A DNA stretch of 15,449 bases from an uncultured Thermococci archaeon (GTDB lineage Archaea > Methanobacteriota_B > Thermococci > Thermococcales > Thermococcaceae), in contig CAZTOS010000055.1 of the NCBI GenBank assembly GCA_964615185.1, positions 1-15,449 of the forward strand, in the 5' to 3' direction. The position numbers were made by a program. Position 1 is the first letter of the stretch, and every line of letters begins with the position of its first letter. Below are positions 3,001 through 8,179 of this stretch, in pieces.

Positions 3001-6000
3001 CTTATGAACCAAGATATTGCACCCTTGTCGAGCGCAAGCTTTTCGGCATATCTCTCGGCGTATGTGTATCCTACTTCTATTCCTCCCCAGGCGGGAACAT
3101 TAGCAGTGTGGTTGCGCCTCCAGACGCTATTTGGGATTCTGATGCACTTAGTGCATGGGAGTATGTGAATTCAGCCAAGCATGATAATGGGTCGGAGATA
3201 GGATAATATAGATATCCTAATGAATTTTCATTCTTGGCAATTGCCAATAATTCACCCCCAAGTAGGATAAGTTTGACATTAAAATGTCACAATTTTCAAA
3301 TTTAGGCTTTTTGGTTAATGTAATGTTTTCTTCAAGCTCCTCAAAACTCTCACTTCTCTACTCAAAGTGCAATGACCGAGTAGATGAACACCAAAAAGAA
3401 CACCAGACCCGAAAGATAGGCAAAGCTATGGGGAATTGGAAGGTGAAGCTTTTTATGAATCTTTTTCGCTTTTATATACATCACTGTCGGCAGAATTCCT
3501 GCATAAAGCAAGCCACCAAATGTCCCAGCCATCCAGAGAGCATTGACAAAACTGTTTAGCCCAGCAAAGTATATGAGCAATGGTGGAATCACGGTTAAAA
3601 GCCATGCGCGTGACTTTTTGATACCAAATATCTCTTTCATGTTGTCCATCTGAGCTAAACCAATTCCAATGTAGCTGGTGCTTATTGCTGCCAATGGAAG
3701 AACTAAGCCCAAAACTTTGCCTAATCTACCGTAGAGCTGCTCAAGGGCTGAAGTTGCCAGTTCTGGAGTCTTTGAGCCAAAAGCACCAACAAATGCAAGC
3801 ACAAAGAAAGCGTAGAACACCATAGGGACAAGATATCCAATAAGAACGGCTTTTGTGGTTTTTCTAACATCTCCCAGACCTTTCAGCATTTCTGGGACAA
3901 CCATATGACTCACATAGGCAAAGACTGCCACACCAATACCTTTTGTTATGGCTGAATAATCGATCTTTGTTAAGTTTGAGAGATTTGTTTTGGGAATAAC
4001 AAGTGCTATTGCAAGGGTTAGAGCACCTAATAAAAGGAAATTCAACAAAAGTTCAGCTTCACCTGAAGCTTTCAAGCCAAGAAAGACTATTAAACTCATT
4101 ACAAACCAGAATATCAGAGCTCCAGCTTTTTCATTAATACCGGTGAGAGAAGAGAGAATGTCTCCACTTCCAGCTATGTAAGCGATCAAAGCTCCATAGC
4201 TTAGCACAGAGATACTCAAAAACATCAGATATCCTCCAACCTTTCCTAAATAGACCTCGGCAATCTTGGAGAGAGTTCCATCGCTGTGAGCGGCTAAATC
4301 GAGAACAAACAATGCTGTGAGCAATGTTAACAATCCCATTGCAATAACGATGATAATTCCCAAAAGTCCGGTATCCTTTAGAGCATAAGGCAAACCCAAA
4401 ACTCCCGCCCCAATTTGAGTTCCAATTAGGATTGCGCTCGCCTCTGCTAAGCTCAGTTTCTTCATTTTAGCATCACCAAATTCATGAACGAAAATTCACC
4501 TTTAAAATCTTGCTATATGTAAAATTGAACCCATCAAATATCAAAGAAATGCACCAATAGACACATGGATGCATTAGAACACATGAATTGCCGTTGCTTT
4601 AAAGCTCGCATAAACATACTTTCCTTCCTTAATTCCCATTTCAATCAGAGAGGAGCGGGTTATAAAGGCTTTGAGCTCAATTCCACTAATATCAAGGCTT
4701 AATCTAATCAGTGAGCCCAAGTCTTCAATTGCCAAAACTTTAGCCTTAAACTCATTCCTTGCAGAAGTTTTTATTGGTTCGTTGGAAATTATGATTTCCT
4801 CTGGTCTTATACCAATTCTAACCTTTCCTTTGACTTCTATGGGCAGTTCAATTAAAATTCCATTTGCTTTCAAGATTCTGCCTTCTGCAATCCCCTCAAT
4901 TATATTTTCAAAGCCAAGAAACCTTGCAACTTCTTCATTCTTTGGTTTTCCAAAGACTTCTCTAACTTCTCCGGTCTGAATTAACCTCCCGTTGAGCATT
5001 ACTCCAACTCTGTCTCCTAAGCTCACAGCTTCCTCAAAAGAGTGGGTCACATGGAGGGCTGTAAAGTTGAGCTCCCTACGCCAGCGTTTCATTTCTTGAA
5101 TGAGCTTAGCCCTTGTTTGGACATCAAGATTTGCAAAAGGCTCATCCAAGAGAAGAAGCTTTGGCTCTAAAACCAAAGCTCTTGCAATGGCAACTCTCTG
5201 AGCCTCACCGCCACTTAATGTTTTTGGCTTTCTATGCAAGAGATGAGAGATTCCGAGGATTTCTGCAATCTCTTTAACTTTTTTCTCGACCTCACTTTTT
5301 GGAGTTTTTCTTACCTTTAGTCCATAGGCAATGTTATCATAAACCCTCATATGAGGAAAGAGCGCGTAATTTTGAGGTATGTAAGCCAAATTCCTCTTTT
5401 CTGGAGGTATGAAAGTTATGTCCTCATCGTTCATAAAAATCCTCCCAGAGTCTGGGATGAAAATTCCAGCGATAACTTCAAGAAGAAGAGTTTTCCCAGC
5501 ACCGCTTGGACCCAGAATTATGAAATACTCCCCTTTATTGACCCCAAAGCTTATTTCTCTGAGCTTGAATTCTTTCCAGTCCTTTGAGATGGATTTAACT
5601 TCAAGCATGGCATCACCTTGTTATTCTATCGAGGAATTCTTTTAGACCTGATTCCTTGAGAAAATCCTTCATAAGTTTTGGCTTTTCATTAATCAGCTTT
5701 TCAACGAATTTTCTATAAAGCCCAGACATTGAGTCTCCATCGTAGTCTTTGGCAATAGCGAGAACATGCATAACATCTTTGGGTTTGAGCCTTCTCTGGG
5801 CATCCTCTTTGAGCTGATTTAAGGAACGCTCAAAGTGTGATAATGTGCTCTCTTTTTCTGCAAGCGCCGTGAGTAAAAGTTCAAGCTCTTTCTTTTTCTC
5901 AATGTTCGGATTATCAATGTTGATATTGCCAAGGCCAAAGGGTATAACTTCAATATCCCCAATCCACAAGGAGGTTTCTTTCACAACTGGATGAAACTGT

Positions 6001-8179
6001 CTAAGAGAACTTTTTGCCCACTCCATAATATTCAGAGTGGTATCTATATCCCTCACCACACCAACTTTATGGAGTTTTACCTTATGGAATCTTGCCCATA
6101 AAAGTATGTTTTTAAGAACTCTTTTCATCCTGTTTTTGTCCTGAGCAGTAATAAGAGCGATAACAGTGTCCCTTCGTCTGAATGTGATAGGAGGCAAATT
6201 AAGCCCAGCCTCGCTAAGTCCCTCTACTTCAACTTTCTCCTTTTTAAAACCATAAACTTTCTCGATTAAAGTCTCGAAGAAAGCCTTATCTGTTGACCCT
6301 TCAACAAGTAATAGGCTGAGATTCATGGTTCATCCCCTTAGGTCGATTCCAAGATCCTCTCTTAGTTCCTTAGCATTTTCAAATGTCTCAATACTATGTG
6401 TAAGCTTTCCATTTTCACGCTTCATGTAAACTATCCTTCCATCGATTTTAGCCTTGATACCCTCTTCAAGGAGCATATCAATAAGCTCAAGGCTGTGAGT
6501 CGTTAGAAACACCTGAACGTTGTTTTCCTTTGCTCCCTTGATGAGAGTCTGTGCCATAATTCTCAGAGATTTTGGATGGTGAAATGCTTCTGCCGAGTCA
6601 ATAAGGAGGTAACCATTCTTTAGAAGTGCCGAGAGAAAGGCAATAATCATGGCACTTTTGAAGCCTTCGCCCATGAGATAGTATGGATACACCCCATATT
6701 TTGTTTCCACATGGAGTATCCAGCGGTTTACTTTGAAAAGCGGGCTGAATCCTTCAATTTCTGGGTAGGCAACACTAAGTATTTTAACACTTTTCTTCAC
6801 CACTTTTTGCTCATATGCATGTGAGTACAGGCTTTCGATATAGCCAAACCTCCTAAATTCCAATGGTGTTAGAAACTCAAATCCCACATCCGGGGTGAAT
6901 TTTGATGAGAGCATAAAGCTCGAAAACACCATATTGTCTACTAAACTAAATTTCTGGAATCGGGTATTTAGTAGAGGGGGATTTTCTGCAGTTGCTTTGT
7001 TTCCTTTGATTAGCATTGCAACGAGTTCATTTCCATGACCATTTTGCAAAGCAAGCTTTAATAACTCATTGTCTTTTATGGCATCAACCTTGAGAACTCG
7101 AGATTCTTTGTGAAACAAATCTTCTACAGCTTGTTCTCCATACCATCCTCTCCATATCAGAATCCCCTGCAGAGTCTCTTTAAATGACTGATTACCATTA
7201 CATGCACCCAGTAGAAGTGCAAGAGCCTCAAGAATACTTGATTTGCACGAATTGTTTTTTCCTGCAATTACATTAACCTGCCCAAGATTTTCAAGTTCCA
7301 AACTCCTAATCCCTCTGAAGTTCTCAATCTTAAGATAGCTTATCATCCGCATCCCCTTCTAATTCTTTGAATTTCTCAATCTTAAAGCTTATCTTCCACT
7401 GCTCGACCTCCCCGCGAGCCATCTCAAAACAATGAATATACTCAGGCTTAACAGTACAAGGATAACTGAGATTGGCGTTGAAGCCCTCAATCCATAGTTG
7501 TTGAAATACTCCATAACTAAAACTTGAGCTGTTTTCGGATAATAAGCAACAATTAAAATGGCTCCAACCTCACTTATTGCCCTCGCCCATGTCATTATAG
7601 CTCCGCTGAAGATTGAAGGTAAAGCCAAAGGTAAGCTAACCGTAAAGAATGCTTTAAGCTTTGATGCCCCTAAGGTTCTTGCTACATGCTCAAGCTTTTC
7701 ATCAACAGCCAAGAACCCATCACGAGCGGCATTTATCGTAAACGGTGCAGAAACAAAGAGCATCGCCATGATTATTCCCAGATAGCTGTCGAGAATCCTG
7801 TTTGAAAAGGTCACGAGGAGCATGATACCAACAACAGAGTGAGGGATTACAATCGGAACATCAACGACAGCTTGAACAAAGCTTTTGCCTCTAAAATCTT
7901 TTCTCGCCAAAACGTAGCCGAGGGGAACACCGAAGAAAAGAGATATCAGCATTGTAGCTGTTGAGGTTAGGAGGGAGTTTCTAAGTGCCTTTAAAACAAC
8001 CTCATCATGGAGTGCTTTTACAAGCATTTCCCAGTCGAGGAGTTGCTTGCTTATGATAACAACTAATGGCAGAAGGATATACAGCACAAGGAACGTTCCA
8101 ATCAGAGCAAAGAACGCTGTTACATAGTCACGCTTCATATCTTCACCTCTGAAAAGGAAAAATAAAAATAAAAAGGTTA

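Follow-up and report, generated by a model that had tools for sequence, protein, structure and literature searches.

The window, that is, the whole stretch of 15,449 nucleotides analysed here from an archaeal genome (G000), carries an ABC ATPase gene and a DUF3226 gene at 5585-7401, located between wtpB and wtpC on the minus strand. The features of the locus, from its upstream end, are:

8177-9262, minus strand: wtpA, first gene of the operon, substrate-binding protein of the tungstate ABC transporter (NCBIfam NF003196, E 2e-153)
7389-8138, minus strand: wtpB, permease (NCBIfam NF040839, E 1.4e-109)
7380-7393, minus strand: promoter-like block (G)ATAA(A)GCTTTAAG, lying 33-42 nt ahead of the ATPase start
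7365-7397, minus strand: degenerate tandem copy of the first ~14 codons of the ATPase (7313-7348), overlapping the promoter-like block
6330-7352, minus strand: ATPase gene (Pfam AAA_15/AAA_21, 340 aa)
5613-6326, minus strand: DUF3226 gene (Pfam PF11536, 237 aa)
5609-5618, minus strand: AGGTGA with the 4 nt that separate it from the wtpC ATG, Shine-Dalgarno-like, containing the DUF3226 stop codon
4574-5608, minus strand: wtpC, ATP-binding subunit (NCBIfam NF040840, E 5.2e-177)
5585-5608, minus strand: first 8 wtpC codons, donor-type, the hitch-hiked recombination tract
4574-5584, minus strand: rest of wtpC, own-genus type, 95% identical to the same-genus genome G005 (90-100% in most sliding windows)

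WtpA, WtpB and WtpC each score over the cut-off of their NCBIfam equivalog (for WtpA, 510 bits against 355). In five of the seven other genomes of the genus the junction is empty, with wtpB and wtpC adjacent and overlapping by 8 nt; the remaining two gave paralogue-level matches only. Homology to the empty-site genomes ends at 5585 and 7401 and resumes at 7402, which delimits an insert of 1817 bp. The wtpB end at 7389-7401 (4 codons and stop) reads ...SSGR*, versus ...RNA* in the same-genus alleles. Both junctions in the window are bridged by contigs from three other studies, for example with 0 differences over 5569-5733 and 7302-7716 in run X3, so that an assembly chimera was rejected as the source of the cassette. 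No empty wtp allele was seen in the three metagenomes examined. The window contains no tRNA, no integrase or transposase Pfam family was found among its 10 largest ORFs, and the repeat search revealed no terminal repeat pair at 5585/7401. The wtp cassette therefore lacks the hallmarks of an autonomous mobile element (a recombinase gene, terminal inverted repeats, and a tRNA or att site as target), and it also lies outside any defence island.

The ATPase matches Pfam AAA_15 (2.5e-21, 77 bits) and AAA_21 (9.7e-16, 59 bits), both over the cut-off. Among the PADLOC models, PDC-M38A fits best (7.3e-36, residues 1-339), followed by AbiLi (2.5e-31) and, more weakly than these two, AriA (6.7e-21 and 1.1e-16); in the PDB, the sequence matches the OLD nuclease 6P74 (E 6.7e-6). 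Alignment of the alleles suggests that the true start lies at 7346 (M-I-S...). The Walker A, signature-like, Walker B and H-loop motifs of the OLD-family ABC ATPases are all present as K35/S36, MGEGFK (225-230), LLID250-S251 with E253, and TTHS (282-285), and the K35/S36, MGEGFK, LLID and TTHS motifs are invariant across 13 alleles, while residues ~85-195 are hypervariable. The glycine preceding the Walker A lysine is Cys in the window copy (G34C), and in all 13 alleles the position following the Walker B Asp holds Ser in place of the expected catalytic Glu. Because of these non-canonical residues, ATP hydrolysis by the window ATPase may be slow or absent.

The partner belongs to DUF3226 (2e-18, 67.4 bits against a gathering cut-off of 27). 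Its match to the Pfam OLD-like_TOPRIM family (1.4e-3) is under the cut-off, that to PADLOC PDC-M38B (2.3e-5) is weak and restricted to N-terminal residues 1-49, and neither AriB nor DUF4435 was matched in Pfam or PADLOC at E<=0.01. PDB entry 2P62, PH0156 of Pyrococcus horikoshii, matches at E 2.1e-44, and superposes on the AF2 model (pLDDT 90) with Z 30.7 and an rmsd of 1.9 A over 237 residues. The next folds found by VIA-align were the OLD nucleases 6nk8 (Z 10.0, 176 aa) and 6p74 (Z 9.8) and GajA 8u7i (Z 9.0), ahead of the next at 7.7; AriB 8v46_D, with Z 6.7, was within background. Residues E9, G10, D13, R92, D93, D95, E147 and E149 are invariant in 15 alleles and include the conserved Glu (E9) and DxD (D93xD95) metal site of TOPRIM domains. 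The invariant E and DxD, the 2P62 match and the next-best OLD and GajA folds together identify the partner as an OLD-type TOPRIM domain, a predicted nuclease; a helical C-terminal domain follows it. Full-text searches returned no literature on the function of DUF3226 under that name and no paper on that of PH0156, which appeared as a table entry only.

Across the Thermococcaceae, homologues of the ATPase were found in 18 of the 96 other genomes, and in 17 of these carriers, spread over four other genera, the order is wtpB-ATPase-DUF3226-wtpC. Every occupied wtp site holds this same two-gene family, with alleles that are mosaic, 41-86% identical and do not follow genus boundaries; in the window and in all 16 two-gene alleles, the ATPase and the TOPRIM protein have an ORF each, with a stop codon and 3 nt in between, and the ATPase is split in the G008 allele. 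A census with the empty-site query matched 82 of 97 genomes, of which, by reading of the table, 63 were contiguous and hence empty and 15 were split by about 1.6-1.9 kb; two further genomes were occupied according to the gene-order survey and in another two the site falls at a contig end. Occupancy is low, about 19/82. The module also exists as an independent unit: plasmid NC_001732.1 of Methanocaldococcus jannaschii encodes a homologue of the ATPase (54% identity, 100% coverage) with DUF3226 (38%) directly after it, in a copy with an in-frame stop, without wtp flanks, near MCM and NurA genes and adjoining an AbrB/MazE-family gene.

Comparisons of the flanks with the cassette trace how G000 came by its copy. 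The flanks are 92-100% identical to G005 and 72-80% to G094, a genome of another genus, whereas the cassette is 88% identical to that of G094, with identity switching within about 5560-5600 and at about 7400. The flanks are of own-genus type up to the cassette edges except for the first 9 wtpC codons, which read MLEVKSISK as in genus g4 versus MLRVENV.K in the same genus. This donor-type wtpC start next to own-genus flanks indicates that the wtp cassette of G000 is another genus's type imported by homologous recombination, a route which the earlier note had named as a possible refutation of its own reading. Genus labels change 5 times on the ATPase tree (shuffled mean 5.7) and 7 times on the DUF3226 tree (shuffled mean 8.1), so that neither tree sorts the genera better than chance. 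The two trees disagree at the starred branches, and chimeric alleles are visible in both alignments.

The cassette also appears to bring its own expression signals. The block (G)ATAA(A)GCTTTAAG, which we take from the familiar consensus to be a BRE/TATA-like archaeal promoter, recurs in 12 of the 17 distinct alleles known at wtp, against a spacer that otherwise diverges, and a promoter-like element thus appears to be carried by the cassette itself. The overlapping tandem copy consists of repeats of 21 nt at 90% and 12 nt at 92%; its local alignment score of 50 was reached by 0 of 1000 shuffles, and the copy is significant also in the G094 and G059 alleles and not in 12 others. At the other end, 16 of the 17 alleles listed retain a GGTGA placed 4-7 nt ahead of an ATG, which suggests that the cassette provides the wtpC ribosome-binding site and that wtpC translation is coupled to it.

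Six other cassettes of the genome, given as contig:positions, were compared with the wtp cassette:

C33:14771-17149: guaA-b/guaA-a, insert 2379 bp, site empty in 5/5 same-genus genomes
C79:2721-4699: aroK/aroA, insert 1979 bp, empty in 5/5
C3:33389-35392: pth2/truD, insert 2004 bp, empty in 5/5
C34:19772-21247: fibrillarin/R15P isomerase, empty in 5/5
C23:20244-22595: amidohydrolase/macro, empty in 4/5
C2:71553-73132: GNAT/tiaS, empty in 4/5

The descriptive part of the earlier note held up well. All seven ATPase two-gene cassettes were recovered at their flanks with the ATPase families and PADLOC matches given there, as were the four insert lengths, the empty sites in most same-genus relatives and the exception at tiaS, where the fifth same-genus genome is occupied by a cassette whose ATPase and partner are 63% and 58% identical, respectively. 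As described, each cassette is a self-contained unit that pairs an ABC ATPase with a probable nuclease, and the family matches are of defence type. No two of the seven ATPases share more than 29.6% identity, in line with the bound of 30% reported before. They account for every short AAA_15 ATPase that the genome encodes, so that none had been passed over in choosing the seven; the three other ORFs over the cut-off are 864-1178 aa long. The seven partners are mutually unrelated. As in the earlier note, the window partner is DUF3226; the partners of the six other cassettes have no Pfam family at E<=0.001, and one has weak PIN matches. The absence of integrases and transposases held for the window, and that of repeats held at 5585/7401 but failed at the macro site, whose insert lies between two perfect 14-nt direct repeats; one same-genus genome has a different gene, DUF835, at that site. 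Tight placement is less unusual than it had sounded: by a crude ORF call, junctions with spacers <=70 nt make up 62% of the gene junctions of the genome (0.62^7 = 0.035), and such spacers hold only 9% of intergenic bases.

All six other families are bound to their own junction in other genera. Among the other genomes with each family, the same site was occupied in 17/18 for wtp, 17/18 for pth2/truD, 10/12 for fibrillarin/R15P isomerase, 4/5 for tiaS, 4/5 for macro, 2/2 for guaA and 1/1 for aro. The earlier proposal that the cassettes spread as seamless single-cassette insertions does not agree with this tie of each family to one junction, and the idea that they ride on housekeeping transcription is not supported, given the aro cassette, which is antisense to both flanking genes, and the promoter-like block at wtp.

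Taken together, these results make it reasonably probable that the wtp cassette is a split OLD-family nuclease of PARIS-like build, presumably antiviral, and an old polymorphism spread by recombination; the split OLD-family assignment follows from DUF3226 being an OLD-type TOPRIM nuclease domain. By analogy with PARIS (AriA/AriB), we infer that the two proteins form a complex in which the ATPase would hold the nuclease inactive, and that the hypervariable ATPase insert may sense an invader, for example a protein or the DNA of a virus or plasmid. The freed or activated TOPRIM protein would then cut nucleic acid via its E / DxD metal site, and cutting would stop the invader or the infected cell. 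As to history, the cassette may have entered the wtpB/wtpC overlap once, in ancient times, leaving both gene ends intact because the overlap was duplicated. Afterwards a presence/absence polymorphism would have persisted at this junction across the Thermococcaceae, with whole alleles, whether occupied or empty, and also parts of the cassette swapped within and between genera via the conserved transporter genes, and G000 would have acquired the other genus's type by such exchange. The six other cassettes follow the same pattern, one housekeeping junction per family. The single origin at wtp rests on parsimony, and repeated site-specific insertion is possible. A module of ATPase and nuclease, of a type that bacteria direct against viruses, interrupts the operon for tungstate transport in this vent archaeon, probably as an old variant exchanged by recombination and not a recent insertion.

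Alternatively, the pair could be a selfish addiction module of toxin-antitoxin-like type, whose loss harms the cell and which persists without antiviral benefit to the host; its placement between tightly coupled essential genes would make imprecise deletion lethal. The Pfam entry for AAA_21 names it a putative AbiEii toxin from a type IV TA system. Where the cassettes are embedded, a deletion would hit wtpB/wtpC, guaA, aro or genes for tRNA modification; the wtpC ribosome-binding site lies within the last codons of the cassette, and the plasmid pair adjoins the AbrB/MazE-family gene. However, the clean empty wtp junction in 63 genomes and the decayed copies (still in place at the fibrillarin site, the split ATPase of G008 and the in-frame stop on the plasmid) indicate that cassette loss is tolerated, and the hypervariable ATPase insert and module reshuffling fit an arms race better. 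We therefore regard this explanation as unlikely, although addiction and defence roles are compatible with each other.

Recent seamless insertion of single cassettes in Thermococcus, by an unnamed recombination-independent mechanism and dependent on operon transcription, would account for each site being empty in 4-5 of the 5 genomes of the genus, for the missing integrase or transposase and for the tight gaps to flanking genes; the direct repeat at the macro site shows that a true insertion duplicating its target took place at least once. Yet the same junctions are occupied in other genera by 41-86% identical alleles, which makes the insertion events old and few, and the donor-type flank tract in the window copy is a signature of homologous exchange. 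The antisense aro cassette, the conserved promoter-like block at wtp and the decayed copies at the fibrillarin site also argue against this scenario, which is very unlikely and, at the wtp site, largely refuted.

About as little credence, or slightly less, can be given to a homing-type selfish element of new architecture, in which the nuclease would cut its own empty junction and repair would copy the cassette in, as known for the free-standing homing endonuclease genes of T-even phages. If true, homing would account for one junction per family, for junctions in the most conserved genes, and for intact, decaying and empty states across five genera; allele trees disregard genus boundaries, and the seven sites, all highly conserved housekeeping junctions, have seven mutually unrelated partners. 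To our knowledge, however, no homing endonuclease has a split ABC-ATPase/TOPRIM architecture. Moreover, the plasmid pair lacks wtp flanks, occupancy is low, and the catalytic residues have been conserved in the long term between alleles that are 40% identical, which suggests that selection maintains a role in the cell. The OLD-family enzymes studied so far are also described as non-specific nucleases in excerpts of a review (PMC10568477). An accessory part of the transporter operon, such as a regulator or repair factor for Wtp, would fit the strict wtpB/wtpC association in 17/18 genomes and the apparent coupling to wtpC, but is highly improbable in view of the 63 wtpBC genomes without the cassette, the homologous plasmid pair beside MCM and NurA genes, the sister cassettes in unrelated operons and the predicted nuclease fold of the partner.

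The split OLD-family reading was compared with known systems. PARIS (AriA and AriB, a proposed class 4 OLD) likewise has an ATPase gene immediately ahead of the TOPRIM gene, and the window ATPase matches its AriA models, though more weakly than PDC-M38A and AbiLi. In PARIS, the ATPase-nuclease complex lets go of the nuclease when it senses a phage protein, and tRNA is then cleaved. The two-gene split of an OLD-type enzyme is a layout described in the available part of PMC10568477, and a table excerpted from PMC11381338 gives the DUF3226 structure 2P62_A as the structure match of a lactococcal AriB. In contrast to PARIS, the window nuclease is DUF3226 and not DUF4435, and by its family matches it does not classify as AriB-type; the window ATPase has 340 aa, compared with 53-55 kDa in partial descriptions of AriA, and has no Glu after the Walker B Asp. 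The same partial sources place PARIS often in viral genomes, whereas the window pair is chromosomal, inside an archaeal housekeeping operon. OLD class 1 (P2 Old, Thermus scotoductus OLD) and class 2 (Gabija GajA) share the ABC ATPase and a TOPRIM domain with E / DxD, and provide the best non-self folds of the partner; in classes 1-3 both domains are on one polypeptide, unlike the two ORFs here, and GajA works with the helicase GajB according to the same portion of PMC10568477, while the wtp cassette has no helicase. PH0156 is a direct homologue of the partner, although deposited as a hypothetical protein. The window pair resembles PADLOC PDC-M38 in its ATPase, while the partner matches PDC-M38B weakly; PDC-M38 is an unvalidated candidate class, as PDCs mostly are in the excerpted text of PMC12988326. 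AbiL is matched by the ATPase, but no second AbiL component was found in the window with PADLOC.

At the level of the locus, the slots differ from defence hotspots in being single junctions inside operons, an 8-nt gene overlap at wtp. Known defence hotspots hold varied cargo, and the strict one-family-one-site pattern is atypical of them: the wtp slot takes one cassette family, polymorphic across five genera. The pneumococcal capsule locus is likewise a variable locus swapped through conserved flanks. Similarly, the core defence hotspots of Pseudomonas aeruginosa, as outlined in part of PMC10250203, have variable defence-like content between conserved core genes that is exchanged through homology in the flanks.

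The wtp cassette and its flanking genes are all encoded on the minus strand of the window.

8177-9262, minus, wtpA (NCBIfam WtpA equivalog, above cut-off)
7389-8138, minus, wtpB (NCBIfam WtpB equivalog, above cut-off)
6330-7352, minus, ABC-type ATPase of 340 aa (AAA_15/AAA_21)
5613-6326, minus, DUF3226 protein of 237 aa (DUF3226; sub-threshold OLD-like TOPRIM match)
4574-5608, minus, wtpC (NCBIfam WtpC equivalog, above cut-off)

The spacers are 36 nt from the wtpB stop to the ATPase ATG, 3 nt between the ATPase and DUF3226 genes, and 4 nt from DUF3226 to wtpC. The ATPase matched the PADLOC families PDC-M38A (7.3e-36, full length), AbiLi (2.5e-31) and AriA (6.7e-21), and the sole PADLOC match of its partner was a weak, N-terminal one to PDC-M38B (2.3e-5). 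No integrase or transposase family was found among the ten largest ORFs of the window, no tRNA was found in the window, and the GC content of the cassette did not differ from that of its flanks. A 437-aa ORF adjoining the wtp operon (9390-10703, plus) is without Pfam or NCBIfam family.

The seven ATPase cassettes that the earlier note had described in this genome were confirmed. At the wtp site, homology to five same-genus empty-site genomes ends at 5585 and 7401, delimiting the insert of 1817 bp. The wtpB and wtpC genes adjoin in five of the seven other same-genus genomes, with the wtpB stop and wtpC start overlapping by 8 nt in those five, and the remaining two gave paralogue-level matches alone. 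An AAA_15/AAA_21 ATPase, the named flanking genes and PADLOC matches were found at each of the six further sites. None of the partners there had a Pfam family at E<=0.001, and weak PIN matches were observed in one. In five same-genus genomes the guaA, aroK|aroA, pth2|truD and fibrillarin|R15P isomerase sites are each empty in 5/5, and the amidohydrolase|macro and GNAT|tiaS sites each in 4/5, the fifth genome at tiaS holding a diverged cassette. Insert lengths came out at 2379, 1979 and 2004 bp, as in the earlier note. The seven ATPases are pairwise at most 29.6% identical, and no BLAST similarity was found among the partners. The seven ATPases are all the short AAA_15 ATPases that the genome has; the remaining ORFs over the cut-off are 864, 887 and 1178 aa long. 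The 864-aa protein (contig C16, L155:783-3377, minus), which lies outside the seven cassettes, is an AAA_15/AAA_21/SMC_N protein into which a NucS_C endonuclease domain is inserted. Both junctions of the window cassette are bridged by short vent-metagenome contigs from three other studies, some with zero differences, so the arrangement is not an artefact of binning or assembly.

The absence of terminal repeats does not hold at every site: a perfect 14-nt direct repeat surrounds the 2342-bp insert at the macro site. The genome is compact: with ORFs called crudely, spacers of <=70 nt account for 62% of its gene junctions, and seven tight junctions out of seven would have a probability of ~0.035 if junctions were drawn at random. 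Were insertion proportional to intergenic length, the probability would drop much lower, since only 9% of intergenic bases lie within such spacers. Because all cassette queries were taken from this genome, its carrying all seven reflects ascertainment and is no sign of an unusual load.

ATPase homologues (E<=1e-20) were found in 18 of the 96 other family genomes. These 18 fall into four other genera, and all seven other same-genus genomes lacked a homologue. The order wtpB-ATPase-DUF3226-wtpC was observed in 17 of these 18. In the eighteenth (G030:C1, L028/L058), a 49% identical ATPase is located just downstream of wtpC, and the 4 kb examined showed no DUF3226 match. A census with an empty-site query matched 82 of 97 genomes, of which, by our reading of the match table, 63 were contiguous (empty) and 15 were split on one contig by ~1.6-1.9 kb; two more were occupied according to gene order, and two fall at contig ends. 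No other cargo was seen at wtpB|wtpC among the 82 matching genomes. The ATPase alleles were 41-86% identical to the window copy, the DUF3226 alleles 30-85%, and the flanking wtpB and wtpC 71-90%. In G008:C6 (L030/L038), the wtp-site ATPase is broken into two overlapping ORFs and was matched by tblastn in two pieces; it is probably a frameshifted copy.

The other families were likewise mostly found at their own sites in other genomes: 2/2 with a true homologue for guaA (a third match was the aro-site ATPase), 1/1 for aroK|aroA in the same antisense orientation, 17/18 for pth2|truD, 10/12 for fibrillarin|R15P isomerase, 4/5 for GNAT|tiaS and 4/5 for amidohydrolase|macro. Several fibrillarin-site copies show decay in situ, with internal stops, C-terminal halves and one 70-residue remnant. 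The four occupied macro sites, all in genus g5, are without the extra 298-aa gene of our genome (C23; L017:2974-3870). This gene, which starts at a duplicated copy of the start region of the macro gene, has a hydrophobic N-terminus and weak matches to SLATT_4 (E 0.02) and the PADLOC 2TM-effector (8e-4). In the same-genus genome G004 (C32; L162:559-1488), a 309-aa DUF835 protein is encoded at the amidohydrolase|macro junction, which can therefore hold other cargo; not all sites are strictly single-cargo.

Comparisons of the wtp cassette with its flanks indicate how it is probably exchanged. The window flanks are 92-100% identical to a same-genus empty-site genome and only 72-80% identical to G094, a genome of another genus, whose cassette is 88% identical to that of the window; at both cassette edges the switch in identity takes no more than a few tens of bases. 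The nine N-terminal residues of WtpC are MLEVKSISK in the window and in genus g4, and MLRVENV.K in same-genus and g5 empty alleles. This donor-type start indicates that a short donor tract came in with the cassette, a trace left by homologous recombination through the flanks. In the ATPase and DUF3226 trees, genus labels were no better grouped than shuffled labels, and the two trees conflict at strongly supported branches. Some alleles are visibly chimeric; one, for example, has the N-terminal two-thirds of the ATPase of one type and the ATPase C-terminus and DUF3226 nearly of the window's type. The cassettes are probably old polymorphisms, each locked to its site and exchanged through homologous recombination. 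Their spread as a new kind of seamless insertion, as previously proposed, is not supported, given the binding of each family to one site in other genera and the donor tract of the window copy.

In the metagenome run X6, two cassette contig variants were observed at window 5745-6348, with 2-9 versus 20-30 differences over 231-385 nt, which indicates allelic microdiversity. No empty allele was seen in the metagenomes X3, X4 and X6, which does not establish its absence. Genome G095 contains one empty and one occupied contig; the latter is 99.6% identical to that of G092, with flanks only 87% like the empty contig of G095 itself, so mis-binning is more likely than polymorphism within the population. 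A long (45-nt) target duplication at wtp was not supported, most alleles not scoring above shuffles. Only the 8-10 nt overlap of wtpB stop and wtpC start is preserved at both cassette ends, in 3-4 alleles, and an insertion sparing both genes must duplicate the overlap anyway.

The cassettes had also been read as riding on host transcription. Simple dependence is argued against by the aro cassette, which is antisense to both of its flanks, and by a conserved promoter-like block at wtp. In 12 of 17 distinct wtp alleles, the block (G)ATAA(A)GCTTTAAG, the conserved ATAAAGCTTTAAG block, is located 33-42 nt upstream of the ATPase start, the rest of the spacer being divergent. It resembles an archaeal BRE/TATA element, and AT-rich blocks of a similar kind precede the macro-site ATPases. 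The spacer with this block (7365-7397) is a degenerate tandem copy of the first ~14 codons of the ATPase (7313-7348), with a score reached by 0/1000 shuffles. The copy was observed in the alleles of the window, G094 and G059 only, and could either have been left by an offset recombination or act as a regulatory leader. Where the cassette meets wtpC, the sequence GGTGA, made up of the final codons and stop of DUF3226, precedes the wtpC ATG by 4-7 nt in 16 of 17 alleles, a placement by which the cassette seems to supply the wtpC ribosome-binding site.

The pair is also present elsewhere. The large extrachromosomal element of Methanocaldococcus jannaschii (NC_001732.1) carries an ATPase 54% identical to ours over its full length and, directly after it, a 38% identical DUF3226 gene, with an AbrB/MazE-family gene, NurA and MCM as neighbours; the pair is thus an independent, transferable unit. 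This ATPase (L163:3994-4998; NC_001732.1 8158-9162) has one in-frame stop where Thermococcaceae alleles carry Glu, and is annotated as two ATPase genes. Phage records gave no DUF3226 match, and plasmid searches gave no match with the pth2-site ATPase and partial matches only with the fibrillarin-site ATPase.

DUF3226 matched a single solved structure, 2P62 (E 2.1e-44), which is a hypothetical protein from Pyrococcus horikoshii (PH0156). With a model derived from 15 alleles (pLDDT 90), Foldseek searches of the PDB recovered only 2P62 and generic Rossmann-like folds. The relation to OLD and GajA surfaced by VIA-align only, which returned 2P62 (Z 30.7), Burkholderia OLD TOPRIM (Z 10.0, 176 residues), Thermus OLD (Z 9.8) and GajA (Z 9.0); the next row stood at 7.7, and AriB (Z 6.7) fell inside the background. 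The invariant residues E9-G10, D13, R92-D93-x-D95, E147 and E149 (15 alleles, 34-84% identical to the window copy) correspond to a predicted TOPRIM Glu and DxD metal site. A language-model neighbour search, taken as a lead only, placed DUF3226 near bacterial clusters labelled DUF4276 and OLD-like TOPRIM. No paper mentioning DUF3226 was found in the literature.

PF11536 was matched in 86 of the 96 other family genomes overall. Most family genomes carry a second DUF3226 gene of ~334-340 aa, which looks like a near-core paralogue; its neighbours in our genome (C10:34450-35064; L154:3864-4868, minus) are genes for a HAD hydrolase and a DUF2391 membrane protein, and no ATPase gene adjoins it. A pattern scan of the genome-contig collection, too narrow to delimit the range of the family, returned seven loci, six labelled Thermococci and one on a short contig. 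This contig (L117, JACDNU010000088.1; 1.9 kb) belongs to a MAG labelled Archaeoglobus. Its DUF3226 protein shares 84% identity with that of the window, and the contig may either have been mis-binned from Thermococcus or reflect a recent transfer.

Among the other partners, profile comparisons of DUF3226 with those of the pth2, macro and tiaS sites gave probabilities <5%. The top matches of the pth2-site partner model include 2P62 (Z 8.9) and OLD (Z 8.2-8.3), barely above the background of 7.7. Together with the invariant E32/D33 and D99xD101 and a weak DUF4276 match, these matches are no more than suggestive.

The window ATPase retains the Walker A Lys/Ser, a signature-like MGEGFK, the Walker B LLID and the H-loop TTHS. 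The Walker A Gly before Lys (window 7245-7250, residues 34-35) is replaced by Cys in our genome and G071; G094, G059 and the M. jannaschii copy have Ser there. ABC enzymes normally carry a catalytic Glu after the Walker B Asp, and this position, residue 251, is an invariant Ser. The variable part is an insert at residues ~85-195, with two length classes among alleles. Complex predictions of ATPase and DUF3226 (runs 0.56, 0.00, 0.00) weigh neither for nor against binding.

The TOPRIM fold and metal site of DUF3226 and the ABC motifs of the ATPase support that the window pair is an OLD-family enzyme split over two genes, and each of the seven cassettes is defence-like, pairing an ATPase with a probable nuclease. 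In a mechanism proposed after the example of PARIS and other OLD enzymes, the ATPase would hold back the TOPRIM nuclease, its variable insert would detect an invader, and the nuclease would then cleave nucleic acid. Less likely rival explanations are that the pair is an addiction module, a homing-type selfish cassette or an accessory of the tungstate transporter. The homing idea has a low probability and is sustained by the strict one-family-one-site pattern.

We describe the window module as a DUF3226-type split OLD nuclease, set in single-junction slots within archaeal housekeeping operons. This gives DUF3226 (PDB 2P62), a structural-genomics orphan, a specific role that can be tested, namely that of the nuclease partner in a split OLD/PARIS-like system of hyperthermophilic archaea. 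Archaeal defence systems are called poorly characterised, and PDC-type candidate systems mostly unvalidated, in an archaeal defence survey (PMC12988326). The accessory-genome organisation differs from defence islands: fixed single-junction slots in housekeeping operons each hold their own highly diverged, mosaic cassette family, which homologous recombination exchanges between genera. Through donor tracts spanning just tens of bases, gene flow between Thermococcaceae genera becomes directly measurable. This organisation also raises the question of whether operon embedding is selected because the conserved flanks serve as built-in homology arms. As for known systems, 2P62_A is listed as the structure match of a lactococcal AriB in a published table (PMC11381338), and the likeness to PARIS lies in the two-gene split layout of an OLD-type enzyme, described for PARIS in a review (PMC10568477) and common to PARIS and the window pair.
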